A stretch of 55,169 bases of DNA from assembly GCA_036172245.1 (NCBI GenBank), contig JAYWIR010000115.1, forward strand, positions 62,001-117,169, read 5' to 3'. This document shows, piece after piece, positions 1,932 to 55,169 of the stretch. The notes under the pieces are model-generated. The model was not told where the DNA came from, did not search any database, and was given only the letters and a program-made list of their open reading frames with translations. Made by a program: the position numbers and the translations under genes. This stretch comes from Raillietiella orientalis. Lineage: Eukaryota. Position 1 is the stretch's first letter. Each line of letters opens with the position of its first letter.

Positions 1932-2822
1932 TTGTCACCCGGATATGCCGGGGCATTTACTATTCTAATTTTGTACAAAAATTAGATAATAAAGTCTTTA
2001 AAAAGAAGTTTACTGTGGGGAAACACAGGGTTCTCCCACCTTGCTCGACGTGTCGGTTGCCGGTGCATAGACCGGTTAGGTTCATTTCCGAGGCACATGG
2101 GAAGAGAAAACTAGAACAAAAACAAACAAAAAGACAGATAACGGTGAGGGAAACAGTTATATGGAGAGAGGAATGGGGGCAGGGAAAAAATCACTGGGCG
2201 CCTGGGTCGGTCCTCCGCATCCTGTTGAGGATGCAGTCAAGTTCGGTTTTTATTGTGAAAGGTAGACGCCACCTTGTCGCCGTCTCTAAAGAGATCGTCG
2301 TTTAGTGGATGGCGTCCCTGCATCTTAAGCCTCTTCTCCTGGCGTGCCACCTTTGCACAATGCCGCTCACGCAGCAGAGGACTGCTAGAGACGCAGCGGG
2401 GCGCAGGCCGTCACTCAGAAAGAGGCGACGGAAAATTTCCTTAGGGTCGCCTACTGGAAGATGGAGGATTAAGGCGATTCGACTCCAGAGTCCATCCTGA
2501 GCGACACACTCGAGGGTGAGATGAGGGAAGGTTTCTCTTTCTCCGCACTCGACACAGCGGGCATCCACATTCCCCAGTGTCCAGTGAGACAGGCGTGCTC
2601 TGCTTAACAGTCCTAAGTGCAGAAATAGCAACGCCGTCTCCTGCAACATCAACGGGAGTGTGTTGCAATCCCAACACGCTGGGGGCCACTTCACCTCCTC
2701 CGGAAGTATTGCGACCAGCTCTCCCCAGCGCGCAAGTCCGTGAGGCGGGACGCTCGGGGTGGCAGCGTCCGTTAGCTCCCGAGTCGTCTACGCCTTTAAA
2801 GGTTTTTTGCGGCCTCGGAAAT
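1932..2822 (-). mobile_element. Family A copy A1, 5'-truncated (C-terminal CCHC + 3' UTR)
   Basis: CVECGERETFPHLTLEC in ORF 2302-2694; 3' stem-loop 1938-1952; flanked by CCAGCCAATGT (1921-1931) and CCAGCCGACGT (2823-2833). Confidence 0.9.
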
Positions 2823-2833
2823 CCAGCCGACGT

Positions 2834-5709
2834 TTGCCACCCGGATATGCCGGGGCATTTATTATTCTGATTTTTTACAAAAATTAGATAATAAAGTCTT
2901 TCAAAAGTTAATTGTGGGAAACACTTGGTTTTCCCACCTTGGTTGACGTGTCTGTTGTCGGTGCATAGACCGGTTAGGTCCATTCCCGAAGCGCATGGGA
3001 AGGGAAAACTAGAACAAAAACAAACAAAAAGAGAGATAACGGGGAGGGAAACAGTTGTATGGAGAAAGGGAGGAAGCAGGGAAGGGATCACTGTGCGCCT
3101 GGGTCGGTCCTCCGCATCCTGTTAAGGATGCAGTCAAGTTCTGCTTTTACTGTGAAAGGTAGACGCCACCTTGTCGCCGTCTCTAAAAAGATCGTCGTCC
3201 AGTGGATGGCGTCCCTGCATCTTGGGACTCTTCTTCTGGCGTGCCACCTTTGCACAATGCCGCGCACGCAGCAGAGGACTGCTAGAGACGCAGCGGAGCG
3301 CAGGCCGTCACGCAGAAAGAGGCGACGGTAAATTTCCTTAGGGTCGCTTTCTGGAAGATGGAGGATTGGGGCGATTCGACTCCAGAGTCCATCCAGAACG
3401 ACACACTCGAGGGTGAGATGCGGGAAGGTTTCTCTTTCTCCGCACTCGACACAGCGGGCATCCACATTCTTCAGTGTCCAGTGAGACAGGCGTGCTCTGC
3501 TTAACAGTCCCAGTGCAGAAATAGCAATGCCGTCTCCTGCCACTTGAACAAAAGTGTGCCGCAATCCCAACACGCTGGGGGCCACTTCACCTCCTCCGGA
3601 GGTACGGCGAGCAGCTCTTTCCAGCGCGCAAGTCCGTGAGGCTGGACGCCCGGGGTGGCAGCGTCCGTGAGCTCTCGAGTCGTCTATGCCTTTAAAGGTT
3701 TTTTTCTGCCTCGGATGAGGCAGGACACTTCCCACGATGCCAGCTCGTTGCTGCTCCTAGTGTTATTCAGGGAGGACAGAACGGGGGCAAGGGGACTGAA
3801 AGAAGCCCACAGAAACTTCCGGGGCGTGTTGATAATCTCCTGCAGCGGCTGTCGAGCGTACGGTCCTCGTCGTAGGCAGTTTTATTCCGCCTCGCTCGTG
3901 CCGTTGATCTTAGCCCACGCGGAAGCTGACTCCTGAAGCCAGGCAGTGCAGTTCGCGGGGATGCAGGAGATCCAGGTATTCTCCCTCATCAGGGCGACCA
4001 TCTGGCGCAAATCGGGGCCACAGTTGGAGAGGCTGCGCTGGTAGGCCACGAGGATCGAGGACAATCCTTCGCAGCCAGTCGCTCTTCTGGCAAGGAGCCG
4101 TGCAGGATCGCACCATGGCGTCATCCATAAGCTAGCCGCAAGGGCTAACTTCCGAAGTGTTGTCTGTAGTTGGATGCGCTCTAACGTAAGGAGGCTCAAG
4201 CCAGAATCCCTGCGTGGAGCGCACAAGTCTTTCTATCGAACTCGCGACCTCGCTGTGCCCCAAAGGCCAGTCCTCAGAAGGGCTTTGGTCCGTCTCTGTA
4301 TGATGGGAGGGGCGGGGCAAACAAAAAGTAAGGGGCGAAGGAGGGGGGCCAGGAACGCGTTCCACACCGCGGCCCGCTTCTGCAAGTAAAACTTGCCGTT
4401 CCGGAACGGGCCGATCGCCAACTCCACCTTTTGGAGACGGTCGGACCAGCCTTCTGCAACGTAGAAGTCCCCTAACGGAACGCCAAGGTACTTGAAGCAC
4501 CTGCCCGTCGGGATTTCCAAGCGGATCCAGTACGGCCGTCCGGCCCACGCCGTATTGTTTAAAAGTAGTGGTGATGCTAAAACGATGGAAGATTTCTTTC
4601 TGTTCACCTCGAGGCCCGTCCCGCGGCGCAGCAACTCAAAGAAATCTTCGAGCGCCGACGCCTGGGTGGACCCGGGGAGCAGGAGCAGAAGGTCGTCGGC
4701 GTAGGCCGACACGGCAGACGTGCCGGGACACGACCTTGGCAGGGTTGCCAGAGTCTCCCTGTATGCCCTCAGCACCAGCTCGAAGTAGATGCTGAAGAGC
4801 GTGGGGCTGAGACTGTCACCCTGCCTTATGCCACGCCGAACCGATACGTCGTACACGTGCCGGCCGCTAAAAGAGATGTTTATTTGAGCGAAGCGCCAGC
4901 AGGAGCGCAGGTGAGCCCGGAAGACGGCCGGGAATCCCAAGCGTTCCAGGAGCTCCAGAAGGAGTTCCTGGTCGACGCAATCGAACGCTTTACGCAGATC
5001 GACTGCGACCGCAAGGGCTCCTGGCGCGGCTCTTCCATGAAGGGCGTCCCCTTCTTGTTCTGAGGAGAATCCGGGATTCTCTTGACCTCCCTGCTCTTCG
5101 CTTTGTTGCAACTGCCACCATGTACTGGCGAGGAACAGGTTGGCCTCCATGCTTCGTCTGGGAACAGCGTATGTCTGCTGCGGACTCACCACGGATTCCG
5201 CTACCCGTCCCAGTCGCTCAGCCCAAATCGTGGCAAGCAACTTCGCATCCGCATTCACTACTGTGATGGGACGCCAGTTGCCTACGTTGCGATTGTCTCC
5301 TCCTTTCGGCAGGAGACGTACTCTAGCTGACCGGAACGATTTGGGGACGTCCCCTTGTTCTCGGATCAGCATGCAAACCCGATGCATCAAAGGGGCCAGC
5401 TCCGCCACGAAGCCTTGTTAAAATTCTGCGGGCAGACCGTCTTCCCCTGGTGCTTTCCTCTTTCTGAGCTTTCCGATGGCGGAGACGATCTCCGTCATCG
5501 AGAAAGGCTCCTCAAGTTGATGTGTCTGCTCCTCCTGTAGCGCGGGGGTGCCTTGCGGCAGCAAGCGCTGCGCCTCGACGCGCTCTGTTGTTCTACGCGC
5601 GTACAAGGAGGAGTAATAGTCCCGCAGGATTCGGTTTATTCTCGCCGGAGCTGAGCATTCCTGGCTTTGGGCGTCCAGCAAGCTGCCCGACCCGGATTTC
5701 CAGGCGCCG
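2834..5709 (-). mobile_element. Family A copy A2, 3' portion (linker, RT, CCHC, 3' UTR)
   Basis: KAPGEDG, NWRPITVVNADAKL, DLRKAFD, GIRQGDSLSP, YADD, KYLGV motifs; 3' stem-loop 2840-2854. Confidence 0.92.
4233..5408 (-). pseudogene. Non-LTR reverse transcriptase domain of A2
   Basis: 391-aa ORF with all core RT motifs including YADD; in-frame stop just upstream, near 5418. Confidence 0.92.
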
Positions 5710-5815
5710 TAAATAGAGATTGTGCTCCATTGCCATCTTTGAAGCCATCCGCGTTTTTGAACGTGGGCACTTTCGATGGCTCCGACACGCTCGTCATGGA
5801 CGCTGCGTTTGCCGT
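5710..5815 (+). mobile_element. Left stub of plus-strand host B2 (APE-RT linker fragment)
   Basis: Reads GTFDGSDTLVMDAA and continues after A3 as SAVQRVVKRNY (6571-6606), homologous to PADVQRIVRRYY. Confidence 0.55.
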
Positions 5816-6570
5816 TTGCCATTTGCCACCCGGATATGCCGGGGCATATATTATTCTAATTTTCTAGAAAAATTAGATAATAAAGTCTTTCAAAAGTTAA
5901 TTGTGGGAAACACTTGGTTTTCCCACCTTGGTTGACGTGTCTGTTGCCGGTGCATAGACCGGTTAGGTCCATTCCCGAGGCGCATGGGAAGGGAAAACTA
6001 GAACAAAAACAAACAAAAAGAGAGATAACAAGGAGGGAAACAGTTGTATGGAGAGAGGGAGGAAGCAGGGAAGGGATCACTGTGCGCCTGGGTCGGTCCT
6101 CCGCATCCTGTTCAGGATGCAGTCAAGTTCTGTTTTAACTCTGAAAGGTAGACGCCAGCTTGTCGCCGTCTCTAAAGAGATCGTCGTCCAGTGGATGGCG
6201 TCCCTGCATCTTGGGCCTCTTCTTCTGGCGTGCCACCTTTGCACAATGCCGCGCACGCAGCAGAGGACTGCTAGAGACGCAGCGGGGCGCAGGCCGTCAC
6301 GGTAAATTTCCTTAGGGTCGCCTACTGGAAGGTGGAGGATTGGGGCGATTCGACTCCAGAGTCCATCCAGGGCGACACACTCGAGGGTGAGATGCAAGAA
6401 GGTTTCTCTCTCTCCGCACTCCACACAGCAGGCATCCACATTTCCCAGTGTCCAGTGAGACAGGCGTGCTCTGCTTAACAGTCCCCAGTGCAGAAATAGC
6501 AACGCCGTCTCCTGCCACTTCAACGGAAGTGTGCCGCAATCCCAACACGCTGGGGGCCACTTCACCTCCT
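5816..6570 (-). mobile_element. Family A copy A3, 5'-truncated
   Basis: Near-identical to the A1/A2 3' ends; stem-loop 5829-5843; flanked by GCGTTTGCCGT (5805-5815) and GCGTCCGCCGT (6571-6581). Confidence 0.9.
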
Positions 6571-8790
6571 GCGTCCGCCGTACAGCGCGTAGTCAAGCGC
6601 AACTACGAGAGCTTTTGGAACGTCTGGGTCTTCCGGCATCCCTGTTGGCGTCCTTGCTTTCCTGCAGGCGCCACGGGATTACATCCATTGTTTTCAGTGG
6701 CTGTCACGTGTACGACGTGCCGGTTAGGCGAGGAATTAGGCAGGGCGATAGCTTGAAGCCGCTGCTCTTTAGCATCTATTTTGAAATGGTTCTAGAGGCT
6801 TACAGGCTGACGCTGGCCAACCTGCCGAGCTCCTCTTCAGGTACGCCGGCCGTGGCAGCCTATACCAACGACCTGCTTCTTCTGTTGCCCATGTCCACCC
6901 CGGCGGCGTCGCTTGAAGATTTCTTTGAGTTGATCCGTCGCGGTGCGGGCGTGAGCGTCAACACAAGCAAGAGCCTGGTTGTTCCGGTTGGAGCGACGTG
7001 GGAGGGGCAGTCCGACTGGATCCGCCTGGGGATCCCCACGGGCAGGTATCTAAGGTACCTTGGCGTGCCGTTAAGCGACTTCTGCATCTCAGAAGCGTGG
7101 TCAGACTGCCTTCGGAAGGCAGAGCGTGCACTTGGCCCGTTCTCAGGAGGCGAGTTCGTCTTGCCGGAACGAGCCAGCATCTGGAACACCTTCGTTGCTT
7201 CCCTCCTCCGTCCTCAGTTTTTTGTTTGTCCACCCCCCCAGGAAGTCAAAGTCTGGGCGCAGCACCTTCTACGCAAAGCGTTGTGGGGCGCTGCAAGATC
7301 CCGTGTTAGACTTAAATTCTTGGTGGCGCCGCGTCAGGATGCAGGCTTGGGCATCCTCGACTGAAACAGTATGGACCTGCAGGTGCAGTTTCGCATTCTG
7401 CGTCTCTGTGCTTAGCTGTAGTGTACGCCGTGGTGCTTACCCGTACGCTTTCTACTGAGGCGTTGTACGGGAAGCGAGGGACTGCTTTCGTTGCTGCCCC
7501 ATTTTCGGCACATCAGAATAGAGTTTGCCTTTCCGCTGAGGCAGCTTTCCTCACTGTTGGAAGCCCAATGCTGTATCTCCTGCCGCTGTATGAACATTAA
7601 TGCATGACGGCAGGAATCTTTCTCATCGTGGGCAGCTTCCGAAGGAACGCGCATGGAAGATCTTCGACGCCTGCAACTTCTCTTCAGTCATCCAATGGAC
7701 GATATCATGCAGGACAAGAAGTCGAATCGTCTGCGCACAATACTACTCGCCTCAGCGCTGTTTGCCCAGAGGGAAAGCAACGACGGTTGCCTACCGGAGG
7801 AATGGGAGTTCTCCTGCAAAATCGCGGGAGACAGTAAGCTCCTCGGCAGCTGGACGACAAAGGAGCTGGTGCAAGCCGCCACTCCTCGGAATCGGGCGAT
7901 GGGCCTGCTTCGGTGGAGGGAACATTTAAGTGTGCCCCCCGGAGAGATAGTCGTTCCCCCCGTTTGTTTGTACAGCTCCGTGTTCCCCCTAAAGTGGAAA
8001 CAAGATGTGCTGCTCTTTTTACATTGCGCATTACACTGTAATAGGCATCGAAGCATCGTTTCCGGGGGAGCTGCTTTGCCAAACTGTTCAAGGTGCCAAG
8101 AGATCGAGTCTTTTCCGCACCTTTAGCTGGACTGCGGTGACCTCCGGGAACTGTGGCGAAGGCTCACTTCGGCCACCATGTCACAAGGAGGCACTGCCAT
8201 TGATGTGCTGCGGCGCTTCTTCAGCAGAAATGGACTTTCGGTTGGCGCGATTGTCGCAACCATGTGTTGCGTTCGCGCCATCGTGAAGGCCCGCTAAGCC
8301 CTGGAGTTGTCATTGCAGCGAAGGGAGGCTCACCTGCTTGCAGCTCAATTCATGGAGAAGGCTTCAAGGTGGTCTCATCTTCGTGACAAGGTGAATGAGG
8401 ACATCAGCGGCATACATCGCTGGTTTACACACCTTTGAGAACGGCGAAATCCGGTGACCTCTGCGACCTCTCGCCCACCCATACTCCGTCCCCATTCGCT
8501 CGGTAAAATTTCCGGTTCCCATGCTTTTATGCCCGTGTCTTCCAGAGCGATCCCAAAGACCCTTATCCCGTCCTCCTTATCCATTGTTTTTATTTTATTT
8601 TGGTTTCTTTGTGTTCCCCGCCCTTCCCACACCGTTCGCAAAACTGTTACTCTGGCCTGCGTGCCAGCAATATTCTCTTCATTCTTGTTCAGTCGTCGGT
8701 TGGGAGTTTGGTTCCCAACTGGTTTATTTTATATAATTGTTTTTTGTTTATGTTATATGGAATAAACGCCTTGGCGTGACCGGGTGAGAA
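6571..8790 (+). mobile_element. Family B copy B2 (internally deleted; RT C-half, CCHC, 3' UTR)
   Basis: GIRQGDSL, YTNDLLL, RYLGV, GLGI, CSRCQEIESFPHL; collinear with about 10300-12474; AATAAA at 8761 followed by the stem-loop. Confidence 0.9.
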
Positions 8791-9606
8791 ATCCTCCGGG
8801 CTTGATCTGCGGAGATCACGTGGATCTCCTGCAGCAGCACCAGGTCGAAGGATGCCAAGGTGGCGGCCACGTCACGCGTCTTGCCGTCGTTGCTTAGCCC
8901 GTTGACGTTCCAGCAGGCGATCAGCAGACGACGATTGGAGGCGATTCCCGGCTTTATTGCTGGTAAGGTGTCGCTGCAGCACCTGCCGCGGGGCAAATGT
9001 TGGGGATGTCCATGGGGACGGAGGCCTCTTCAGGCACCAGATGCACCTGTTCGGCTTCCACCCCCTCCATCCCCTTCGTGTGGGAGCGTGGGATTCTCTC
9101 TGGCAACGGATCCCGGAAGTTTACCACGCTCAGCGCACCATCGCTGAAGGAAGCCATCTCTTCCCCTTCGTCGGGGAGACGATCATCTTGGGCTTTGGGG
9201 ACTTTCGTCCAGTTCTTTTGCGAGGTGCGCTGCAGATATAAGCTGAGCTTCCGGCCTCTACCTCAAGGCCGGAAGTAAGGGACTTCTGAGGGGAGGCCGG
9301 ACGCCTGACGGCCTTCTTTCCAGCCTTCGGGGCAACCGGCTGCAAAGAGGCAGCCAGTTCCTCCGCGACGCGCTCGAAGGCGACGTCCTCAAGCGTGGGC
9401 TCGATGACGGACGCCGCCGCCTCGCTCCACTCCTTGTTGACTTCGTCAACGGAGGGTTGAGCGGAGGCAGCAGGGAGTTCTTTAGCGCCGCATTCGTCGA
9501 TGGCGGAAATCCGCTCTACGTCGACGCAGCAGCTTTTGTTTTTTTCGCAGCGCGGAGCGGTTTCGCTCCTATCCGCCACGTTCTTTTCCTTTTTAGGGAA
9601 GTTTTT
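8791..9606 (-). mobile_element. 5' portion of A2 (ORF1 C-terminus + APE N-terminus)
   Basis: IACWNVNG...LLQEIHVISADQARRI cut at 8791. The right end abuts CCAGCCGACGT (9607-9617), identical to 2823-2833, which links it to A2. Confidence 0.8.
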
Positions 9607-12474
9607 CCAGCCGACGTGCAGCGGATAGTCAGGCGCTATTACTCTTCTCTGTATGCAGAGGCACCAACGGCACGCAGTCTCTCCGAGCTGCTTCTGCCGA
9701 TTCATGCACCTGTTGTAGACGAGGAGGAACGCGCGCGTCTCAATGAGCCTTTCACGGCAGAGGAAATTTCTTCGGCCATCTCGCGGCTTAAGAGACGAAA
9801 AGCGCCAGGCAAGGATGGACTCCCCACAGAATTCTTCCAGAGCTTAACGGCGGAGCTCATCCCCCTGGTTCTTCAACTCTCATCGCTGATGCGAGACGCG
9901 GGCGATATCCCCGCCTCGTTTCGCTCACCGAAGGTGCGTCTCCTGCCGATAGGCGGAGATTCGCGTCTACTGAACAATTGGCGTGCGATCCCCTTAGTGA
10001 ATTCGGACGTCATGTTGTTCTCGAAACTTTGGGTGGCGCGGATGGGGAGGATCGCGGAGTCTTTGGTAAGTCCGGAGCCGACCTACGCTGTTCCTGGGCG
10101 CTCCATGGACGCGAACCTCTTACTCCTCCGCACATGGCTGCAATTGCAGCATCGCGTGGCGAAGGATCGTCGTGCGGAAGCAACGCCTTCGATCTCTGAC
10201 CGACGGAGGCGCGGGTCACAAAGGGAAACCCCGGGAGCCTTGGCGGTTGCAGTCGATTTGCACAAACCTTTCGATTGCGTGAACCAAAAGCTTCTTCTTG
10301 AGCTCTTGGAACGTTTGGGCCTACCGGCATCCCTGTTGGCGTACTTGAGCTCTTTGCTGGCGCCACGGGATAACATCCATTGTTTTCAGTTGCTGTCACG
10401 TGTACGGCGTGCCAGTTTGGCGAGGAATTAGGCAGCGCGATAGCTTAAGCCCGCTGCTCTTTGGCATCTACTTTGAAATGGTGCTGGAGGCTTAGAGGCT
10501 GACGCTAGCCAACCTGCCGAACTCCTGTCCAGGTACGCCGGCAGCGGCAGCCTATGCCGACGACCTGCTTCTCCTGTTGCCCATGTCCACCCCGGCGGCG
10601 TCGCTTAAGATTTCTTTGAGTTGATCCGTCGCGGTGCGGGCGTGAGCGTCAACAGGAGCAAGAGCATGGTTGTTCCGTTTGGAACGACGTGGGAGTGGCA
10701 GTCCGACTGGATCTGCCTGGGGATCCCCACGGGCAGGTACCTCAGGTACCTTGCCGTGCCGTTGGGCGACTTTTGCATCTCAGAAGCGTGGTCGGACTGC
10801 CTTCGGAAGGCAGAGGGTGCACTTGGCCCGTTCTCAGGAGGAGAGATCGTCTTGCCGGAACGGGCAGCATCTGGAACACCTTCTTTACTCCCCTCCTCCG
10901 CCCCCTGTTTTTTGTTTGTCCACCCCCCCAGGAAGTCAAAGTCTGGATGCAGCGCCTCCTACGCAAAACGTTGTGGGGCTCTGCAAGATCCCGCGCAAGA
11001 CTTAAAGACTTGGTGGCGCCGCGTCAGGATGCAGGTTTGGGCATCCTAGACTTAAAAAGCATGGAGCTGAAGGTGCAGTTTCGAATGCTGCGGCTCTGTG
11101 CCAAGCTGTGGTCTACGCCGTGCTGCTTATCCGCACGACTTATACTAAGGCGATGCACGGGAAGCGAGGGACTGCTTGCGTTGCTGCCCCACATTCGGCA
11201 CATCAGAATAGGGTTTGGCTTCCCGCTGAGGCAGCTGTCCTCACTGCTGGAATCCCAATGCTGGATCTCCTGCCGCCCCATCAACATTAATGCATGGCGG
11301 CAGGAATCTTTTTCATCGTAAACAGCTTTAAGGGAACGCGTTCGGAAGATCTTCGGCGCCTGCGACTTTTCCTCAGTCATCCAATGGACGAAGTCATGCA
11401 GCACAAGAAGATGTCGGATCGTCTGGCCGCCACACCGCTCGCCGCAGCGCTGTCTGCCCTCAGGGCAAGCAACGACAGTTGCCTACCGGCGAAATGGGAG
11501 TTCTCCTGCTCAATAGCGGGAGTCATTAAGCTCCTCGGCTACTGGACGACAAAGGAACTGGTGGAAACTGCTACTCCTCGCAATCAGGTGAAGGGCCTGC
11601 TTCGGTGGAGTGAACATTTAAGTGTACCTCCCGAAGAGATAGTGGTCCCCTCTGTTTGTTTGGACAGCTCTGTGTTCCCCCTAAAGTGGAAACAAGATGT
11701 GCTGCTCTTTTTACATTGCGCATTACACTGTAATAGGCAGCGAAGCATCGTTTCCGGGGGAGCTACTCCGCCAAATTGTTTGAGGTGCGGTGAGATCGAG
11801 ACTTTTCCGCACCTCATGATGGACTGCGGTGACCTCCGTGAACTGTGGCGAAGGCTGATTACAGCCATCCTGCCGCAGGAAGGCACTGCCATTGATGCTC
11901 TGCGGCGCTTCTTCAAGAGGAATGGATTTTCGTTAGGCGCGATTGTCGCAACCATGTGTTGCATTCGCGCCATCGTTAAGGCCCGCTACGCACTGGAGTT
12001 GTCAGCGCAGCGAAGGGAGGCTCACCGGTTTGCAGCAGAATCCATGAGAAACGCTGCTAAGTGGTCTCATCTTCGTAACGAGGTCAAAGAGGACATCGTC
12101 GGCATCCACCGCCGGATTACAGACTTTTAGGAACGGCTTTATCCGGTGACCACTACGTCCTGAAGCCTACCCATACCCGTTCCTTGCTCGCTCTGCTAAA
12201 ATACCGGTGCGATTACTATAATCCCGGAGAGAACCAGAGCTATCCCAAAGACCCTTGTCCCCGCGTCAACCGTGGATTTCTTCTTTTGTTTTTGTTTGAT
12301 TGTTTTCTCAGTTCCCTCAAACCGTTCTGTGTAATTCTGGCCTGCGTGCCAGCAGTATTCTCTTGACACTTGTGCCGTCGTCGGCTGGGGGCATGGTACC
12401 CAACTGGTTTATTTTATATATTTATTTCTATTGTATTTATATGAAATAAACGCCCCGGCGTGACCGGGTGAGAA
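9607..12474 (+). mobile_element. Family B copy B1, 3' portion (linker, RT, CCHC, 3' UTR)
   Basis: KAPGKDG, DLHKPFD, YADD (gcc tat gcc gac gac near 10550), CLRCGEIETFPHLMMDC; AATAAA 12445-12450 and stem-loop 12454-12468. Confidence 0.9.
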
Positions 12475-12925
12475 ATCTCTTGCGCTTGTTCTGCAGAGAT
12501 CACATGGATCTCTTGCATCAGCACAATGTCGTAGGACTCTAGCAGGGCAGCCATGTCTCGTCTCCTGCCGGCGTCTGTCATGCCGTTCACGTTCCAAAAG
12601 GCGATGCGCAGTCGACGGCGGGAGGAGATTCCCGCCATTACTGCTGGGAAGATTAAGGTGTGGGATAGCCCGCCTCTTGCGAGGCGGGCGGGATGTCCAT
12701 GAGGGTTTCGGCCTTCTCAGGCACCTGTTCGGCCTCCATCCCCTCCATCCCCTCCGTGTCCGTGCGTGGGAGTCTCTCGTGCGACGGGTCCCGCGAGTTT
12801 CCCACGCTCATGGCATCACACACGTCGGGGTGGTCATGGGTAAAAGGAGAAGGTCATCGGCATAGGCCGCCACAGACGGCGTACCTGGACAAGACCTCGG
12901 CAGGTTGGCCAGCGTCAGCCGGTAC
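12475..12925 (-). mobile_element. C-type element fragment (APE N-terminus + ORF1 tail) fused to a short RT (YADD) fragment
   Basis: IAFWNVNG...LMQEIHVISAEQAQEI cut at 12475; homologous to 49150-49480; 12825-12925 encodes YRLTLANL...AYADDLLLL. Confidence 0.8.
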
Positions 12926-13165
12926 GTGCAGACGTGTGTCCATGTTGCTCCCGTAGGTGACAGTTTAGTTGTGAAGTTCGTGAAATCTTCTGCAAGCATT
13001 TACGTTTATATTGTATTCCGTGTATCTTACGGAGTTATTTTACTTGTTCACAAGGAATCGTAGTGATACAGTGATTATTGTAGAGAATGAAAGGTCTCTT
13101 CTTTGGCCGTCCGCATCTGCTAGCGTCTAACTAGAAAGCTGTTGTTTGGCCAAGGTAAGACTTAC

Positions 13166-33130: not shown

Positions 33131-33399
33131 GAAAAAAGCAGAGTTGGTCGACTTCGTTGTCCCAAGCTTACTCGAGAAGAATCGGGTGGGTGGTAGAATT
33201 GCTGAGTATACAGTTCTGTTGTACTAGTTTTCTGTCGCGTTTTCTCGGGAAATAGGAAACTTAAGGGCGTTCCCACAATCTCCTATTCTCCACAGGAGAC
33301 CAAAGGTTACAAGGACTCGGGGGACTTGCCTGTTGTGTTGCGCAGGATGCTCAACTTTTAATTCCTTCATGGACCTCGCAACGATGGCTCTGAAGCTCA

Positions 33400-40698: not shown

Positions 40699-42481
40699 TT
40701 TCTCACCCGGGTGCGTCGGGAAGTTTATTACTAAACCATCCGGGAACAGAGTTACCGGATAAAGGACACAGAAGAAACGAAGGAGGGAATTCCCGACACG
40801 CAGATCTGTATACCGAAAGCCCGGAACGAGTGGTAGGGGACCACAAATACACATATAAAAAAATAGAAATAAAGATATAGGGAGGGGACAGGGGTCTTTG
40901 GTTGGCCGTTCCTTTACTTCAGAACCGGCTCAGGATGCCGATGATCTCGCTCCTAACGTCCTCCGGAAGATGGGTCCACTCGGCAGTCGAGGTCATGTTC
41001 ACGCCGGCTATTCCGGTGGCCTGAAGACAAATCACCAGCTTCTCCAGCTCTCGTTGGGCCTTGTCGATGGCGCGAGTGCAACATACCGTTGCGAAAACAG
41101 CATCTAATGACAGGCCGCCCGGCATGAAGAAGCGGCGCATCAAGTCTCTTGCGGTGTCCGCCTGATGCAGGAGAGCTGAAACCAGCCTCCACCCCAGTCC
41201 TTGGAGGGCATCGGAGTCCAAGAGCAGGTGCGGAAGCGTTTCCACTTCCCGCACCGTTTACAGTTCGAGGAGACACCTCCCCCAGAAACACGGTTCGTCC
41301 GCTGGTTGGAGTGAAAACTCCAATGCGCCAGCATTATGACGTTTTGCTTCCAAGAAAAGGGGAACACAGAAGTGTTCAAAAAGGAGGGAGGGATCACAAA
41401 TTCATCGGGGGGCACACTCAAATGTTTGCTCCATCGAAGGAGTCCCTTCGGGATGATGCGAGGCGTGGCGGCGTCTGCCAGCTCACAAGTTCTCCAGCCG
41501 CCTATGGGTCGGGTTGTTGCTGCGATGGTGCAGGGGACCTCCCACCTCTCCTATAAACAGCTGTCATCACTTGCCTTGAGGGCTGACAGCGCGTCGGCGA
41601 GGGTGTGACAGCCAGGCGAGTCTACTTCTGGCTGTTCCAGACCTCTTCCACCGTGCAGAACGGGGTGAGATTGGCGCAACGGTGTGCCAAGAGCGAAACA
41701 TCCTGCTACAGTTGCCCAGGCATGCAACGATTCCTACTTCCAGCCGTCAAAGTTCGTTGGGTGGCAGGAGATCCATGCGTGGGCGACCAGGAGACGGTGA
41801 AGAGGTTTCAAAGGTAAACGGAAGCTTCTCGCGGCGAGCTCTGTATGTGTCCGGAGCGGAAGAAGGCCATCGCTGCTGGTGCAGCGCCGGAGGAGCAAAC
41901 GCGCGGGAGAAAACCACGGAGTGGATCAAAGGTTGGCGCACAGGGCCAACATTCCAAGCTGCACCTACAGCTTGAAACTCTCCAGCGTCAGAATGCCCTA
42001 GCCGGCATCCCGAAGCGCAGCCGCCAAGTCTTTGAGGCGGATCCTGTACCTCGCGGGTTGCCACAGAGGGTTCTTCAACAGGTTTTGCGCCTGGAGCTTG
42101 GCCGAGTAGGGAAGCGTACAAACAAAAAGCAGGGACGTAATTGAGGGACAACGAAGGTGTTCCATACGGTGGTCCGCTCCGGCAGGAGGAACCTGCCAAA
42201 GTGGAACGGGCTTAAAACACTCGTAGCCTTCCGAAGGCAGTCCGAAGACGCTTCCACTATGCTGATGTTCCCCAGCGGGACGCCAAAGTATTCGAAAGAC
42301 GTAGCGGTCCGGATCTCCAGGCGGTTCCAGTCGGAGAGCCCCTCCCACGCCGCACCAACAGGAACGACTACCCTGTTGCTCCGGTTTACGCTTATTCCTG
42401 CTCCCCGGCGAATCAACACGAAGAAATCCTCGAGACTGTACGCCGGGGTGGTCATGGGTAAAGGGTTAAGCAGGTCATCGG
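40699..42481 (-). mobile_element. Family C copy C1, 5'-truncated at the RT DD motif
   Basis: DDLL, YFGVPLG, CKRCG..ETLPHL; AATAAA plus stem-loop at 40706-40729. Confidence 0.85.
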
Positions 42482-42482
42482 A

Positions 42483-43466
42483 ATTTATGAACCGGATATT
42501 CCTGGGCATTTATTCTAATTTAGTATAAAATTAGATAATCAAGTCATTCAATATTGGTTTATGTTGGGGAACACTTGGTTCTCCCACGCTCGCGTTCTTG
42601 TCGTGATCCGGTTCTGAAACCGGTGAGGTCCTCTCCCTAGGACAGTACAAGGGAAAACTGAAACAAAAAGAAACAAAACGAGAAATAACGGGTAGGGAAA
42701 CAGTAACATGGGAGGGTGAAGGGCAGGGAGGGGATCACTGAGCCCCTGGGACGGTCCTCTGCATCCTACTCAGGATGCAGACGAGTTCACCTCTTATTAT
42801 GGGTGGTAGACGCCACCTTGTCGCCATCTCCAAGGAGAGCGTAGTCCAGTGAATGGCGTCCCTGCATCTGTGGCCCCTTCTAGCGCTCCACCTTTGCAAG
42901 ATGCCTCGCACGCAGCAGAGAACTGCTAAAGACGCAGCTGGGTGCAGTCCATCACGCAGAAAGAAGCGTCTGTAGATGTCCTTAGAGTCGCCTACTGGAA
43001 GACGGAGGGCTGGGGCAAGTCGACTCCAAAGTCCTACCAGGGCGAAACACTCGAAAGTAAGGTGCGGGAGGGTTTCCCTTTCACCGCACTCGACGCATCG
43101 GGCATTCACGTACCCCAGTGTCCAGTGTGACAGGTGTGCTCTGCTTAGGAGTCCCCGATGCAGAAAGAGCAACGCCGTCTCCTGTCACTTCAACGGGAGG
43201 GTGCCGCAATAGCAACACGCTGGGGGCCACTCACTTCCTCCGGAGGTATTGCGAGCAGCTCTCCCCAGCGCACAATTCCGTGAGGGGGGTCGCTTTGGGT
43301 GCCAGCGTCCACAAGCTCACGAGTTGTCCACTCCTTTATCGGTCGTGCCCTGCCGTCAATAGTGCAGAACACTGTCCATTCCCCCTGCTCGCTGCTGTCC
43401 CTAGAGTTTACAACAAAGGGCAACACAGGGGCAAGGGGAGTAATGAGAGACCACAGAAACTGGTCG
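42483..43466 (-). mobile_element. Diverged family A copy A5, 5'-truncated
   Basis: CVECGERETLPHLTFEC (ORF 42735-43172); A-type 3' UTR; degenerate stem-loop 42491-42505. Confidence 0.85.
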
Positions 43467-45887
43467 TTTATTACCCGGTTGCGCCGGGACGTTTATTGAA
43501 AAAAAACATCTGCGAACTGTGTTCCCAGGCAAGGGAAACAAAAGATGGGGAGTAGATTCCCCGGCACGCAAGCCGGGCACACTGAGAGTTCGTAACGGGA
43601 AGGAGGGAACAATAAATAAATAAATTGGGTGGGAGGGTGGGGATAGGGGTCTATAGGCCAGCCGTTCCTATTCTCAGAACCGGCGGTGAATGCCGCCGAT
43701 CTCCGTCCTCACTTCTGCTCATAAGTGTGGCCACCCGGCAGCCATTTCCAGGTTTCAGGCTGCTGTGTCGGGGACCGATGTTGGGACTGCTCGCATCTGT
43801 AATACGCGGTGGGCCCTGACAATGGTGCGGACGCAGCAGATGATTGCGACCACCGCTCCAAGAGAAAGACCGCCACGCGTGTAGAAGCGGCGCATCCAAT
43901 CGATTGCGGTGTCTCCGGGGTGCAGGAGCGCTGAAGACAGCCGCCGCCACAGCTCCTGGAGGGCACCGCATTCAAACAGCAAATGCGGAAGCGATTCCAC
44001 CGCTCCGCATTTGGCACAGTTCGGGGACGCAACTTACCCGGAAACCAGGTGCGCGTGCTGGTTGAAGAACAAACCCCAATGCACCAGCAGAAAAGCGTCC
44101 TGTTTCCACCGAAGGGGGAAGACAGTCGCGTCCAAACACACAGAAGGGACCACAAATTAATTGGTGGGCACCCCGAGGAGCTTACTCCACCGGGGAAGTC
44201 CCTTGGCACGAAGGCAAGGCGTGGCAGCGTCTGCCAGCTCGAAAGTCCTCCAGCCGCCCAGCAGTCGGGTTTCGCCCACACTTTGCAGGCGACCTCCCAC
44301 CTCGCCGGTAGGTCACTGTCGTCTCGAATCATCAGTGCAGACAGTGCTTCGGCGAGGGGCGTAGCGGCTAGGCGTATCCACTGGTCCTGGTCTTCAAGCA
44401 CCTCCCCCACTGGACAGTATGGGGAAAGGTTCACGCAACGGAGTTCCAAACGGGAAACATTCTGTTGCGCCGCCCAGGACGATAAGGCTTCCTGCCTCCA
44501 GGCGTTGAAGTTCGTCGGCCGGCAGGAGATCCACTCATGCTTTCCCAGAAGCGTGGCGAGCTGCTTCAAAGGGAAGCCGAATCCTCTCTGGGCGCGCTCC
44601 GTGCGCAGATGCAACGAACGTAGTCCGTCGCCACCCGTGCTGCGCCGCAGCAGCAGCCGCGCTAAAGCACACCAGGGAGTAGTCCAGAGCTGCGCACAAA
44701 GTGCCAGCATGCGGAACTGCACTAGCAGTCCGATCCACTCCAGCGTCAGGATGCCCAATCCTGCATCCCGCCGAGGAGCCGCCGAGTCCTTCAGGCGCAT
44801 CCTTGACCTCGCCGGTCCCCAGAGGGCGTTACGCAACAGGCGTTGCGCCCGGCGCTTAGCCGAGTAGGGAGGGGGACAAACAAAAAAGAGAGGACGGAGG
44901 AGGGAGGCAACGAAAATGTTCCACAGAAAGGCCCGTTCCGACAGGAGAAACCTGCCGCCTTGGAGCGGGCCCAGAGCAGTCTCGGCCTTGTGAAGGCAGT
45001 CCGACCACGCTTCTGCTGGACAGAAGGCGCCCAAGGAAACGCCGAGGTACTTCAAGCACCTGCCCGTGGGGATCCCCAGGCGGATCCAGTCCGACTGCCC
45101 CAACCGGTACAACGGTTGATTTCCTCCTGTTGACGATCAGGCCCGCCCCCCGACGAATGAGCTCGAAGAAGTCCTCGAGCCTGGACGCCAGGGTGGACAT
45201 GGGCAGCAGCAGGAGAAGGTCGTCAGCATAGGCGGCCACGGCCGGAGTTCCCGGAAAGGAGCTCGGCAGGTTAGCCAGCGTTAGCCTGTACGCCCTCAGC
45301 ACTAACTCAAAGAGGATGCTGAGGAGCAAGGGGCATAAGCCGTCTCCCTGCCTGATACCCCGCCGTATGGGAACACCGTACACGTGACGCCCGCTGAAAG
45401 AGATACAGCATAACGCGTAACGCCAGCAGGAGCGCAAGTAGGCGATGAGGTGCGTCGGGAGGCCTAGGCGTTTTAGAAGCTCCAGGAGGAGGTCCTGGTT
45501 CACGCTTTCGAACGCTTTGCAGAGATCGACGGCGACCGCTAAGGCTCCCGGCGTTCCATCGTGCCTTGAACACGGATGCTTTCCTTTGGCAGCAGCGATT
45601 TCGGCTGCCTGGCTCTGCTGCGCCACGCGCTGCTGCAACTCGATCCATGTTCGCACGAAGAAGAGATTCGCTTCCATGGACCGCCCCGGAACAGCATACG
45701 TCTGCTCTGGACTTACCAGAGACTCCGCGATTCTCTCCAGCCGAACGACCCACAGTTTGGAGAACAACTTGACGTCCGAATTCACCAAGGTGATCGGACG
45801 CCAGTTGCTTAATTGGCGCATGTCTCCGCCTTTCGGCAAGAGACGCACCCCTGCTGAGCGGAAAGAAGAGGGAACATCTCCCGTCTC
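43467..45887 (-). mobile_element. Family D copy D1, 5'-truncated (RT + CCHC + 3' UTR)
   Basis: ORF 44856-45848 with NWRPITLVNSD, GIRQGD, YADD; CAKCGAVESLPHLLFEC; stem-loop 43474-43488. Confidence 0.88.
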
Positions 45888-49835: not shown

Positions 49836-49837
49836 TT

Positions 49838-52800
49838 AACAGCGGTCGGAAATACGCTCGACGACAACGGTGCACGGACGTGTTCTGTGTTGCTCCACGA
49901 GCGTGATTCCTTTCCGTCTTCTTGTGTGTGGTGTGCCCGAGTGCGTCCACTGGCATGTCCACGGAGCCCCTGCAGCAAAAGATGGATGTGGAGGCTGCTA
50001 CTGGCAGTGGAGACTCTACTCCAGATGTCGGGTCCGCCTCTGATTCTTGTGTCTCGCCACCGGCGAGAAGCTTCGCCGCCGTCGTCAAGGTGGCGGCAGC
50101 CAACGGAGCACCGCCCGACGAAGCGGAGCTGCAGGCACATGCAGCCCATGGCTACAAGCCTGCGCTCTGCTATCCGGTGAGTTCTGAGATCTCCGACGGG
50201 GTCGGAGAAAATTTGCGGGACGAGCTTTCGCGCCTCGGGGTCCGACAGGACGACCTCCTGGCCGTCATGCCGGTTAACGCGCTCGGACACTGGGAGGTGC
50301 ACTGCAAAGAGGCATCCCTAGTCCAGCGCCTTCTTTGCACCCCGCTAAATATCCGCGGGAAGGAGGTCGTCTGTTGGCCATGGACCAGTCGTTCGTGGTT
50401 CGATTATCCGCCGTCCAGGTGGACACGCTTGATCGCGTGCTCGTCGCTGCACTAAGTGCATTCGCCACGGTGCACGCGCTGTGGAGAGCAGATAATCCGA
50501 TCAAAAGGATTGCATCTCTCCACAGCAGACTTGCCATGGCGCGTGTCACCATGGCGGATAGGAGGCAAATGCATCCGCACTTGCAGGTGGGCGATGCGAT
50601 CGTCCACCTTAAATTTGCCGGTCAGCGACCGGCTTGCGGTATTTGCTGTGCCCAGGGCCACCGTCCGTGGACGTGCCCTTCACGCAACTGCCGCTATTGT
50701 AAACAGCTCGGCCACTCCATCAAAGAGTGTGCAGAGCTGAAGAGGAAGCGGCAGGCGAAAAGCCGCCAACAATCTACCTCGTCCGCGCCGACAAGATCCC
50801 CCGTTGTGCCACGGGAGAAATCGGGAGCGAAGGGCGGGGCATCTTCGAGTGGCGGTCCCGCAAAAAAGGGCGCGGTTGCTTCAGGAAAGCCATCCCAGAC
50901 AACTGCGCAGACGGGAAATATGCCACGTCGCCCTGGGGACAAATCGCCTTCTTCGAAGCAGCCTAAGAGTGCGGGCACGCACTCAATCAAGGCTGCTGAA
51001 CCGTCTGCGTCCGCTTGCGCGTCCAGCGGAGCATACGGGAAACCGTGCGCGGGTACCCTCGGAGCTACCTCTGAACGGCAGTCTCCTCCTACGGCGGTGG
51101 AGATCACGTCTTCCACGCCGAAGGCACGAGCAGCGAAGGCTGCAATAGCGCCTCGCGGGACGACGGCAATCACCGCCGTTTCGCACGCATCGGCTAAGGA
51201 GCAGGTGCAGTGCGTAACGGGGACGGAGCCGTCTCCCGCCGCGAGCGCGAAACGTGAGCCGGCATCTCCGGCCAAACAATTGAGGGAGGCGTCGGCCTCC
51301 CAGGAGGGCGTCCCCGACGCGGGCTGGACTCGAGTCTCCAGGACGCCCAAAAGGGGAAGAAGAAGGTTGTCCCTTCAATATTCCCCATCCTTAAGGTAGG
51401 TGGGAGGCAAAAGAGAAGCACGCCGAACAAGGTGCGTACCCAGGTACTCACTACGGCTGCGTGCTCTGTCTTTGTCGCTTCGCGCGAGAGAGCGGCTGCG
51501 GAAGCCAAAGCTCCGGAAGCTGCGTTGGCGACTGCGACGACCCCCGCGCGGGCAGGGCAAGCCTCCTCCTGCCGAAACAAAAAGAGACTGGCAAAACGCC
51601 AGTCTCGCGCCAGGCACTCGGACTCCACCTCGGAGTCCGAGTGCAAACAAATGGAACGCGCATCCCGGGGAAGCCGGTAGCGCGCCGGGCAACAGTGCGA
51701 AAGCACGAGCCTGTTGCCGGAGGCGGTTCCGGCTCCTGCATGGAGACCGAGGCGATGATCCTCGGCTGCCAGGACTCAGCTGGGCGCGATGTGGCGGCGA
51801 ACGGGAGCCATTCCGCTTCCCTATCCGCTCTCCTACCAGCTGACTTCTCGCCGGACGGGACGAGGAGCACGCCGTCATGTCCGCAGCAGTGATGCGTGGA
51901 CTCGCGTCCGCTCGTCGCGTCAGCGTGGCCTGTTGGAATGTCAACGGACTACGTGATGCTGACAAAAGGCGGACGGTAGCCAACGCTTTGCGCGCGTTCG
52001 ATCTGGTGCTGCTGCAGGAGATACATACCATCTCCGTACGGCAGGCATCGGATCTGGAAGAGCGCGCGGACGGAACGCTACACTGGCGGCAAGGCTCCGC
52101 GCACACGTGCGGAGTCGCGTTCCTCGTCCGAGGCAGGGTGGCGGAGGCGGTGCGGAACGTTTGTTTCGACGAGGAAGGTCGTGTGGGCCAACTTGTCCTC
52201 AAGTGGTCCGAATCGATCGACCTGGTCGTTACGAACATCTACGCACCGAGCGGCGGCCGGTATTACGCCCAGCGACTTGCATTGCTGGGTGGCCTGCGCA
52301 GCCGCTGGCTCGCTGACTCCGGCCCTTACGTGGCGCACCTCCTTGCAGGAGACTTCAACGTCCACCTGCTAACAGAGGAGAGATGCCGCTTGAGGGAGAA
52401 GCAACTGGTGAGCGAGGTATGCGCGTCCGTGCGCGTGCAAAACTTCCTTGCTGGTGAGCCCGGGATGGAGAGATCGCCGAACCATGCGTTCCTCGATGAA
52501 CACCTGCTCTCACGACTAGGTCGGAGAGGGCGCCTGCTGTCCGCGATTTCGGATCATCCTAGACTGGAGTTCGAGCTCCTCCCGCCTGGCAAAGGGCCTC
52601 CGATCAATGTCTGGAGGTTGCCTGCCGACTGGCCTAGCAATTCCGAGGCGACGGGGCATCTCCGCCAACACCTCCGGGGCTTCGCCATCTGTGAACTCGA
52701 GGACTGGGACGATCTGAAAAGATCGGTCCGCGAGTTCTGCTGCCGGTTCACCTTGCACCTGCTTCCCCGCGGCTTCGGGAAGGGTGTCGCGAACAGCAGA

Positions 52801-52949
52801 TCCTATTTGCAGGCGCGTACCTTTTCACGATTTCCGGACGTCCGGCGTCTGGTATAGTATAAGGCCAGAGCCGAGCGCCAGGTTTGGCAGTCTGGAGCGG
52901 CTTGTCTGCTCGATGACGCTGACCAGGAATGTTCGGCTGCAGCCGAAGT
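49838..52949 (+). mobile_element. B-type element B3: 5' UTR, ORF1, APE; interrupted at 52949
   Basis: ORF1 from about 49955 with CGICCAQGHRPWTC and CRYCKQLGHSIKEC; TGATG overlap 51890-51894; APE ORF; ends QECSAAAEV. Confidence 0.92.
51892..52857 (+). pseudogene. ORF2 APE endonuclease domain of B3
   Basis: WNVNG, LQEIH, NIYAP, GDFN, SDH; premature TAG at 52855. Confidence 0.9.
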
Positions 52950-55169
52950 TTGCCACCCGGATATGCCGGGGCATTTATTATTCTAATTTTCTGCAAAAAT
53001 TAGATAATAAAGTCTTTCAAAAGTTATTTGTGGGAAACACTTGGTTTTCCCACCTTGGATGACGTGTCGGTTGCCGGTGCATAGACCGGTTTGGTCCATT
53101 CCCGAGGCGCATGGGAAGGGAAAACTAAAACAAAAACAAACAAAAAGAGAGATAACGGGGAGGGAAACAGTTGTATGGGTAGAGGGGGGGGGCAGGGAAG
53201 GGATCATTGGGCGCCTGGGTCGGTCCTCCGCATCCTGTTGAGGATGCAGTCAAGTTCAGTTTTTATTGTGAAAGGTAGACGCCACCTTGTTGCCGTCTCT
53301 AAAGAGATCGTCGTCCAGTGTATGGCGTCCCTGCATCTTGGGGCTCTTCTACTGGCGTGCCACCTTTGCACAATGCCGCGCACGCAGCAGAGGACTGCTA
53401 GAGACGCAGCGGGGCGCAGGCCGTCACGCAGAAAGAGGCGACGGTAAATTTCCTTAGGGTCGCCTACTGGAAGATGGAGGACTGGGGCGATTCAACTCCA
53501 GAGTCCATCCAGGGCGACACACTCGAGGGTGAGATGCGGGAAGGTTTCTCTTTCTCCGCATTCGACACAGCGGGCATCCACATTTCCCATTGTCCAGTGA
53601 GACAGGCGTGCTCTGCTTAACAGTCCACAGTGCAGAAATAGCAACGCCGTCTCCTGCCACTTCAACGGGAGTGTGCCGCAATCCCAACACTCTGGGGGCC
53701 ACTTCACCTCCTCCGGAGGTATTGCGAGCAGCTCTCCCCAGCGCTCATGTCCGTGAGGCGGGACGCTCGGGGTGGCAGCGTCCGTGAGCTCCCGAGTCGT
53801 CCACGCCTTTAAAGGTTTTTTCCTGCCTCGGATGAGGCAGGACACTTCCCACGATGCCCGCTCGTTGCTGCTCCTAGTGTTTTTAAGGGAGGACAGAACG
53901 GGGGCAAGGGGACTGAAAGAAGCCCACAGAAACTTCCGGGGCGTGTTGATAATATCCTGCAGCGGCTGTCGAGCGTACGGTCATCGTCGTAGGCAAGTTA
54001 TTCCGCCTCGCTCGTGCTGTTGATCTTAGCCCACGCGGAAGCAGACTCCTGAAGCCAGGCAGTGCAGTTCGCGGGGATGCAGGAGATCCAGGTATTCTCC
54101 CTCATCAGGGCGACCATCTGGCGCAAATCGGGGCCACAGTTGGAGAGGCTGCGCTGGTAGGCCACGAGGATCAAGGACAATCCTTCGCAGCCGGTCGCTC
54201 TTCTGGCGAGGAGCCGTGCCGGATCGCAGCATGGCGTCATCCATAAGCTAGCCGCAAGGTCTAACTTTCGAATTGTTGTTTGAAGTTGGATGCGCTCCAA
54301 CATAAGGAGGCCCAAGCCACCATCCCTGCGTGGAGCGCACAAGTCTTTCAATCGGACTCGCGACCTCGCTGTGCCCTAAAGGGCAGTCCTCAAGAGGGCT
54401 TTGGTCCGTCTCTGTATGATGGGAGGGGCGGGGCAAACAAAGAGTAAGGGGCGAAGGAGGGGGGCCGCGAACGCGTTCCACACCGCGGCCCACTCCTGCA
54501 AGTAAAACTTGGCGTTCCGGAACGGACCGATCGCCAACTCCACCTTTTGTAGACGGTCGGACCAGGCTTCTGCAACGCAGAAGTCCCCAACTTAACGCCA
54601 AGTTACTTCAAGCACCTGGCCGTGGGGATCCTCAAGCGGATCCAGTCCGGCCGTCCGGCCCACGCCGTATTATTGAAAAGTTGTGGTGATGTTGGAACCA
54701 TCGAAGAATTTTCTCTGTTCACCTCGAGGCCCATCCCGCGGCGCAGCAACTCAAAGAAATCTTCGAGCGCCGACGCCGGGGTGGACCCTGGGAGCAGGTG
54801 CAGAAGGTCGTCGGCGTAGGCCGACACGGCAGGCGTGCCGGGACACGAGCTTGGCAGGGTTGCCAGAGTCTCCCTGTATGCCCTCAGCACCAGCTCGAAG
54901 TAGATGCTGAAGAGCATGGGGCTCAGACTTTCACCCTGCCTTATGCCACGCCGAACCGGCACGCCGTACACGTGCCGGCCGCTAAAAGAGATGTTTATTA
55001 GAGCGAAGCGCCAGCAGGAGCGCAGGTATGCCCGGAAGACGGTCGGGAATCCCAAGCGTTGCAGGAGCTCCAGAAGCAGTTCCTGGTCGACGCAATCGAA
55101 CGCTTTACGCAGATCGACTGCGACCGCAAGGGTACCGGGCGCGGCTCTTCCATGAAGGGCGTCTCTTCC
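52950..55169 (-). mobile_element. Family A copy A4 (3' UTR, CCHC, RT; runs off the window)
   Basis: Collinear with A2; YADD in ORF 54603-55055; stem-loop 52956-52970. Confidence 0.92.

Follow-up and report, generated by a model that had tools for sequence, protein, structure and literature searches.

A hexamer, hairpin and heptamer module at the 3' ends of L1-like retrotransposons: a probable recognition signal for reverse transcription

Introduction

How does the reverse transcriptase (RT) that a long interspersed nuclear element (LINE) encodes choose its template when the copies end at a precise nucleotide and carry almost no poly(A)? This question is raised by a stretch of 55,169 nucleotides from Raillietiella orientalis (contig JAYWIR010000115.1, positions 62,001 to 117,169; hereafter the window), the GC-rich parts of which are a nest of decayed non-long-terminal-repeat retrotransposons. 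An original prediction described ten copies of a 3'-terminal module, AATAAA-N3-CCCGG-N5-CCGGG-TRNNAAA, in divergent families, and read it as a shared signal for RT recognition or 3' processing. Stem-loop recognition is textbook for L2, RTE, R2 and SART1; mammalian L1 is relaxed and driven by poly(A), and template choice by L1-clade RTs is still debated.

Here, we report the position and conservation of the module, the exact ends of the elements, the repeat of their terminal heptamer, their target specificity and the covariation of the hairpins upstream. The module is best explained as the last 31 nt of a structured 3' untranslated region (UTR) of about 250-350 nt, common to at least six diverged families of one L1-like group. 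We consider it probable that it acts as a stringent-type recognition and start signal for the element's RT, combined with the element's own poly(A) signal.

Results

The 3'-terminal module and its conservation

A search of the window with the 24-nt pattern AATAAA-N3-CCCGG-N5-CCGGG, allowing at most three mismatches, returned ten matches, eight on the - strand and two on the + strand (8761 and 12445), at precisely the ten predicted sites. Dinucleotide shuffles gave a mean of 0.32 and a maximum of 3 matches, and 0/100 reached ten. With the hairpin alone (at most one mismatch) nine matches were found against 1.52 expected: seven of the sites are perfect, 40706 has one mismatch, and the ninth match, at 51664, is unrelated and due to chance. 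The sites 8761 and 42491 are absent from this second search, having two mismatches each. The ten modules, with the element copies to which they belong, are as follows.

1931..1961, - strand: A1 (AGTAAA-N3-hairpin-TGACAAA), with the element end at 1931; pattern and drop in identity
2833..2863, - strand: A2 (tail TGGCAAA); pattern and in-register alignment
5822..5852, - strand: A3 (hexamer AATATA); pattern and in-register alignment
52949..52979, - strand: A4, with a joint in a contig of sequencing run X1 (see below) ending exactly at 52949; pattern and drop in identity
42484..42514, - strand: A5 (degenerate, CCAGG..CCGGT, tail TCATAAA); pattern and alignment
8761..8791, + strand: B1 (two G-U pairs); pattern and alignment
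12445..12475, + strand: B2; pattern and alignment
40699..40729, - strand: C (4-bp stem); pattern and alignment
43467..43497, - strand: D (tail TAATAAA); pattern and alignment
32055..32085, - strand: F (tail TGAAAAA); pattern and alignment

The ten copies stand in register over 36 columns with zero indels, as the claim of fixed spacing requires, and 14 of these columns are invariant and 7 nearly invariant. The same alignment bears out the irregularities ascribed to single copies, namely the mutated hexamers at 1938 (AGTAAA) and 5829 (AATATA), the stem at 8761 held by two G-U pairs, the 4-bp stem at 40706 and the degenerate copy at 42491. The stem is constant across copies and the terminal loop varies. 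The spacer of the module reads ATG in A, A5 and F, and ACG or ACT in B, C and D; this split matches two groups of UTR architecture.

The exact 31-nt pattern occurs five times in the window, and a covariance model built from the ten copies recovers just those ten when it is run over the same DNA. Ungapped pairwise identity of the module is 78-80%, versus 65-71% for BLAST-aligned open reading frame 2 (ORF2), the DNA of which is 64-71% identical between families. Because its conservation exceeds that of ORF2 coding DNA, this comparison argues for purifying selection on the module.

Element families

By self-comparison and protein mapping, the elements form seven groups: family A, with four members that are 89-94% alike, family B, with two, and A5, C, D, E and F, the F copy being about 1.1 kb long (32055-33133). 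All copies seen are decayed and frameshifted. Their architecture is L1-like, with an apurinic/apyrimidinic endonuclease (APE), RVT_1 and a C-terminal CCHC/zf-RVT. ORF2 matches RVT_1 (5e-25) and Exo_endo_phos (1.8e-12) in Pfam; zf-RVT reaches 1.7e-6 at best, just over the Pfam cut-off in one copy and under it in two others, and a CX2C..HX4C motif is visible at the ORF2 C-terminus. One ORF1 has a candidate zinc knuckle, a weak zf-CCHC match (E = 0.008) whose 16.7 bits fall short of the cut-off of 20.8. Against solved structures the RT matches human L1 ORF2p with E values of 9e-22 to 1e-20, and R2 with 1e-16 or weaker, a weak test of RT affinity given that L1 and R2 are the only solved LINE RT references available. 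Long database homologues with APE, RVT and zf-RVT are 23-31% identical, and the sole close database relative of the RT is P0001 (66% identity).

Eleven ORF2 C-termini lie in the window, and the module follows ten of them; the eleventh (E, near 47509) is truncated ahead of its UTR. The module is thus common to diverged families, as predicted, and forms the exact 3' terminus in several families of this one LINE group.

Exact 3' ends and terminal heptamers

The element ends were placed by comparing copies inside and outside the elements. A1 and A4 are 92.2% identical inside the element (815/884) and 70.7% identical in the flank (778/1101), and the drop falls directly past ...GGCAAA; for B1 and B2, the corresponding values are 85.7% (1859/2168) and 75.4% (252/334). 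The DNA sequencing run X1 (Logan contigs, share 0.11), compared with 40600-53100, shows related LINE contigs, one of which joins another LINE, in opposite orientation, to exactly 52949, the end of A4. The AATAAA hexamer lies 25 nt before the element end; it is invariant at the family level and mutated in two decayed copies only.

The terminal heptamers are TGACAAA, TGGCAAA (three copies), TCATAAA, TGAGAAA (three copies), TAATAAA and TGAAAAA. The tail TRNNAAA therefore stands in nine of the ten copies and fails in 42491 (TCATAAA). That the elements carry almost no poly(A) is confirmed, as nine of ten end in exactly three A's and the remaining one (F, at 32062) in five. In A3 the heptamer is present three times (TGGCAAA TGGCAAA CGGCAAA), and it is single in the other copies; such a repeat is as expected from slippage or re-initiation on a recognized end. 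The additional units lie as follows.

5808..5821, - strand: two further terminal heptamers past A3 (TGGCAAA, CGGCAAA)

Two smaller observations concern these tails. The D tail TAATAAA (43467-43473, - strand) itself forms a second AATAAA at the very end of the element. A C immediately follows the terminal AAA in seven of ten copies; the last templated base may be this C (...AAAC), or the targets may share a C.

Target specificity and arrays

Four insertions lie within other LINEs, the remaining parts of which are listed here.

829..1930, + strand: LINE T', from APE to the pre-RT linker, the target of the A array, which cuts it in antisense orientation; alignment and protein mapping
51844..52948, + strand: LINE T, from APE to the pre-RT linker, the target of A4, which cuts it at the homologous nucleotide; alignment and Pfam
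8792..8960, - strand: APE N-terminal part of a LINE, target of B1; alignment and protein mapping
12476..12662, - strand: the same APE part of another LINE, entered by B2 at the homologous site; alignment and protein mapping

A1 and A4 are inserted antisense at the same homologous nucleotide of two diverged + strand LINEs, in the APE-RT linker (codons ...ECSAPAN), and B1 and B2, likewise antisense, interrupt the APE domain of two - strand LINEs at a homologous position, about 70 codons in. All four insertions are thus antisense, and the targets are 71-75% identical and the inserts 86-92%. Because element and flank diverge unequally, both pairs are independent insertions and not duplications. 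Families A and B are target-specific, with different targets. An A-like junction in X1 lies at a different site, the RT N-terminus, so the specificity of A is not absolute. The targets of A and B are unrelated in sequence and the module is the same, which argues against a role of the module in target annealing. No microhomology between tail and target was found by eye, and no tRNA or other small-RNA target was found in the window.

Two candidates were rejected. The X1 joint at 45867 is no third insertion into the A target, as it lies about 100 codons further into the RT, and a possible 10-nt target-site duplication of F, 2396 nt upstream, is probably due to chance, the F homology stopping at about 33133. 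Separately, 49146-49808 (- strand) is a third copy of the B target (APE N-terminus) that lacks a B insert and breaks at the same point; an E-family RT fragment on the same strand (47509-49119) abuts it after about 30 nt. Either a single element has lost about 1.5 kb internally, the deletion ending at the B site, or these are two separate pieces.

The window further contains two head-to-tail arrays of 5'-truncated copies, [A3][A2][A1] (1931-6573, - strand) and the mixed-family [D][A5][C] (40699-46175, - strand). Their junction spacers measure 13 nt (A2/A1), about 5 nt (D/A5) and 0-2 nt (the other two). Each unit starts at its exact ...AAA end, and there are no A runs at the junctions. Since units from different families begin at the exact ...AAA, the process that built the arrays started at a point defined by the module. 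The longest spacer is given here.

2820..2832, - strand: 13-nt spacer separating the 3' end of A2 from the 5' start of A1; its first 10 nt resemble the A1/A4 target flank

This spacer is either a sandwiched target-site duplication or read-through. The arrays suggest either that a regenerated target was entered repeatedly or that templates were switched as the elements were reverse-transcribed. Template switching is known for R2, and the spacer-free junctions fit a switch of the RT to the end of another RNA.

Structure of the 3' UTR

The original prediction held that the UTRs upstream of the module are unrelated between families. This is wrong: outside the module, primary-sequence alignment between families is near shuffle level, but all six families share a T-rich tract, a hairpin H1, a variable hairpin H2 and a U-rich arm that pairs with AAUAAA. 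H1 has the form CCGG-N8-CCGG and lies about 95-130 nt from the element end. The H1 hairpins stand at the following positions.

2060..2075, - strand: H1 of A1 (CCGG-N8-CCGG)
2958..2973, - strand: H1 of A2 (last base mutated)
5947..5962, - strand: H1 of A3
53074..53089, - strand: H1 of A4
42608..42623, - strand: H1 of A5
8652..8667, + strand: H1 of B1 (CTGG..CCAG, compensatory)
12337..12352, + strand: H1 of B2 (CTGG..CCAG, compensatory)
40793..40808, - strand: H1 of C (CAGA..TCGG, one compensatory pair, one mismatch)
43561..43576, - strand: H1 of D (loop TTGCG, fully complementary to the terminal loop CGCAA)
32180..32195, - strand: H1 of F

Compensatory changes are present in two of the four H1 pairs (C-G to U-A in B1 and B2, G-C to A-U in C), and in H2 of the B/C/D group three pairs have both sides changed in one sequence with pairing kept. 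Separate RNAalifold runs on B/C/D and on A/A5/F agree on the layout: H2 comes first, the hexamer follows as the 3' arm of an AU helix, and then come the GC hairpin and an unpaired tail of 7 nt. Pairing of the hexamer clearly exceeds shuffles in A (0/200) and B (1/200) and is borderline in C (11/200). In A and B, the hexamer is accordingly modelled as locked in an AU helix that adjoins the GC hairpin.

Complementarity between the H1 loop and the terminal loop

In most families, the module's loop, which varies, is complementary to that of H1: D has UUGCG/CGCAA, C has UGCGU/ACGCA, A has UAUG/CAUA, F has UUUG/CAAA with the register shifted, and B has UGCG/CGUG with two G-U pairs. A5 does not fit. 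In a shared register, all four loop pairs are Watson-Crick in A, C and D, and B forms four of four with its two G-U pairs; D has a fifth pair, making a 5-nt run. Double-sided changes separate A from C and D in two of the four loop pairs, and B has one. Upon permutation of the loops among families, the cognate pairs were matched or exceeded by 8/720 permutations in run length and by 6/720 in duplex energy. Taking H1, the loop-loop helix and the terminal stem together (13 pairs), four double changes were counted versus 1.8 in shuffles, with 4/500 shuffles reaching four and slid-register controls giving 0-3. We treat pairing of the H1 loop with the terminal loop as a lead. Several 175-nt folds have as their minimum free energy structure a full long-range duplex of H1 with the terminal hairpin; we rated this below two local hairpins with pairing loops, because B has changed both arms of H1 and kept the local hairpin.

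Searches beyond the window

The exact 31-nt pattern was found at three loci in a metagenome collection, which read like bacterial bidirectional terminators and have no LINE context, and at four loci in 596 Gb of prokaryote genomes, on contigs titled as bacterial metagenome-assembled genomes; viral contigs gave none. Scans of genome contigs and viral contigs with an RT-alignment profile found no relative. Rfam had no match at the gathering score over the window and nothing relevant at E <= 10 over 40650-43700.

Discussion

A recognition and start signal for the RT

In the mechanism that we favour, the ORF2 protein would bind the terminal GC hairpin, which is probably part of a larger fold together with H1, and target-primed reverse transcription would start at a fixed distance, 7 nt past the stem. 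Copies would then end in ...TGRNAAA regardless of whether the RNA continues 3' into poly(A) or read-through sequence. A start at a point fixed by the module would account for the exact ends, the lack of poly(A), the repeated heptamer and the clean mixed-family junctions. The hexamer would most simply be the element's own poly(A) signal, with RNA cleavage at about the last bases of the element. Poly(A) cleavage usually takes place 10-30 nt downstream of AAUAAA, and the distance of 25 nt from hexamer to end fits this geometry.

Several results weigh against such a signal or narrow its basis. The evidence comes from ten copies in a single window; no partner short interspersed nuclear element (SINE) was seen, the covariance model finding no short module-bearing element in the window, and the pattern scans of prokaryote genomes, viral contigs and metagenomes revealed no outside relatives of the elements. 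In the terminal stem, compensatory changes occur in none of the five pairs, the same value as in shuffles, so its folding is inferred from conservation; what acts may be the stem's sequence, or its DNA form, and not an RNA helix. When 110-nt ends were folded with RNAfold, the GC hairpin reached a high probability in F and in four of the five A-family copies tested, but in no other copy; competing long-range pairings won in A5, B, C and D. Furthermore, the placement of the hexamer in a helix is not above shuffles in D, F and A5.

A more specific model extends the favoured mechanism to the loops. In it, the UTR would adopt a compact fold in which the terminal GC hairpin and H1 make a kissing contact through their loops; the stems would be universal, the loop pair would be a family-specific address, and the start would be fixed by distance. 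We put this forward as a tentative proposal that is rather doubtful at present. The complementarity was noticed post hoc, mainly reflects one lineage split and comes from related sequences; A5 and F fall outside the common register, and B relies on two G-U pairs. If the kissing-loop model were true, co-resident L1-like families would share an RT-docking scaffold with each protein preferring its own RNA, and stringent, structure-coded recognition would be present in the L1 clade outside plants.

The module can also be explained without any recognition by the RT. As a pure 3'-processing cassette, it would consist of AAUAAA, a spacer hairpin and a cleavage site, the RT would be relaxed and primed on poly(A), and the final AAA would be a poly(A) remnant. 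The accessible part of PMC5381506 lends this some appeal, since vertebrate L1s end in AATAAA and poly(A) after T-rich UTRs and a T-rich tract is present here too; in addition, the hexamer is invariant at the family level and stands 25 nt from the end, within the usual cleavage window, and the family A tail can be read as ...GGCA/AA. Nevertheless, a processing cassette leaves unexplained why precisely three A's are found in nine of ten copies with no variable tails, why A3 repeats the heptamer and not an A run, why the array junctions are free of A runs, and why hairpins covary across the whole UTR. We know of no role of an invariant GC stem in polyadenylation, and we regard this account as unlikely. 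If instead the GC palindrome acted at the level of DNA, on the cDNA or the integrated copy, it could serve second-strand priming or be a target of an endonuclease or of methylation. A stem that is conserved as sequence without covariation, and a palindrome that is identical on both strands, would suit such a role; the neighbouring hairpins, however, covary as RNA or single-strand structures, and the loop varies yet stays complementary to H1. To our knowledge, no LINE mechanism needs a palindrome site of this kind, and a signal in DNA appears very unlikely.

Two further accounts concern the history of the module rather than its function. It might have spread between families by exchange of 3' ends, through template switching or recombination of co-expressed LINE RNAs. 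Mixed products do form, as the array [D][A5][C] shows, and L1 template-switch chimeras are documented in work cited in the accessible part of PMC4494074, but the spacer variants of the module track the two groups of UTR architecture, as vertical descent predicts, and an exchanged module would still have to work with the protein of each family; on balance, we hold exchange to be quite unlikely. A functionless, slowly decaying relic of common ancestry is the most improbable account. The families are related, and all copies seen are decayed and frameshifted; yet the module is more conserved than the coding part of the same elements, and the UTR that surrounds it is at shuffle level.

Comparison with known systems

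A close parallel is the L2 element of eel (UnaL2) and zebrafish, in which a conserved hairpin likewise stands just short of the 3' end, by a few nucleotides, and is followed by a short unit that slippage can repeat; it has no poly(A) and an exact RT start. UnaL2 ends in TGTAA repeats, according to a statement quoted in the accessible part of PMC3747384. The present elements differ in their L1-like APE, RT and CCHC, as opposed to the L2 clade, and in having an invariant 5-bp GC palindrome as stem, a variable loop, AATAAA 3 nt upstream and a heptamer that is normally single.

Within the L1 clade, conserved 3' ends that form hairpins were described for the maize and sorghum LINE1-1_ZM group and for L1-1_CR of Chlamydomonas, in which the last ~45 nt have a divergence of 0.144 versus 0.570 for the rest (Ohshima, 2012; PMC3472496). 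This was interpreted as stringent recognition, which was proposed to be ancestral in L1 (PMC3472496). The present elements share with them the L1-like affinity and an end that is far better conserved and is predicted to form a hairpin. In the LINE1-1_ZM group, however, the stem varies with compensatory changes, and it is the loop (UCU) and 3' flank (CGAG) that stay constant, whereas here the stem is fixed and the loop varies. LINE1-1_ZM and L1-1_CR end in poly(A) or simple repeats, in contrast to the 7-nt tail without poly(A), and the canonical hexamer 3 nt upstream and the loops that apparently pair with an upstream hairpin are further differences. Stem-loop ends in the L1 clade are thus already published, and the present form of hexamer, hairpin and heptamer differs from them. 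No published description of this module was found in the literature searched, which left out most subscription journals and Repbase reports.

By analogy, the behaviour of families A and B resembles the target specificity of the Tx1 type. Elements of the Tx1 group (Tx1L, Keno, Tx1-Mar) insert target-specifically, often into transposons, as A and B have each entered one site twice. In the accessible part of a study by Kojima (PMC4494074), Tx1 families are described as targeting other transposons, and tandem insertions of Tx1-Mar and SINEU as sandwiching the target-site duplication, to which the target-like sequence in the 13 nt between A2 and A1 may correspond. The differences are that poly(A) tails are found on SINEU, the mobilization of which is attributed to Tx1-Mar, and that the targets here are LINEs of the same group, entered antisense.

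Other comparisons are more partial. The 3' UTRs of vertebrate L1s are T-rich and end in AATAAA and poly(A), as stated in the accessible part of Boissinot and Sookdeo (2016; PMC5381506); the T-rich tract and the terminal AATAAA are the same here, but a hairpin and TGRNAAA without poly(A) take the place of the tail. SART1, as summarized in PMC3472496, is also an APE LINE with target specificity, and a structure in its 3' UTR sets the start point; it belongs to another clade and ends in a poly(A) that is itself required. Grem-LINE1 of Mucorales (10.1101/706580), of the LINE1 clade, has a zinc-finger ORF1, an AP endonuclease, RVT, zf-RVT and a 3' poly(A) signal; it is likened by its domain set alone, and the accessible part of its description mentions no terminal hairpin.

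The present group keeps the L1 hexamer and replaces the poly(A) tail by an invariant hairpin and a fixed 7-nt end, and would be a natural intermediate for testing the idea of an ancestral stringent L1 (PMC3472496). It offers clear mutational targets (stem, loop, partner loop and tail) and a 31-nt marker by which these elements, and any SINEs with a tail borrowed from them, could be annotated. Furthermore, the site specificity of LINE-into-LINE insertion is relevant to the question of how such families keep harm to their host small.

Other features of the window

A more diverged LINE fragment lies at 20020-21505 (+ strand); tblastn detects APE and RT pieces in it, and it has no C-terminus and no module downstream. 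Another pair of repeats (16834-17573 and 38790-39580) shows 72% identity, and Pfam matches neither of two long open reading frames, 14272-15426 and 36256-37272 (both + strand). All of these may belong to other repeat families or be ORF1 or 5' regions of LINEs.

The AT-rich middle of the window (a stretch of 36-40% GC) contains a host gene for phosphopantothenoylcysteine decarboxylase, represented by two PF02441 flavoprotein exons about 7 kb apart (23791-24120 and 30979-31377, both + strand). Its best protein matches, at only 51-58% identity, are from early-diverging fungi and animals, which points to a host with few sampled relatives. Copy F ends about 680 nt downstream of the second of these exons.

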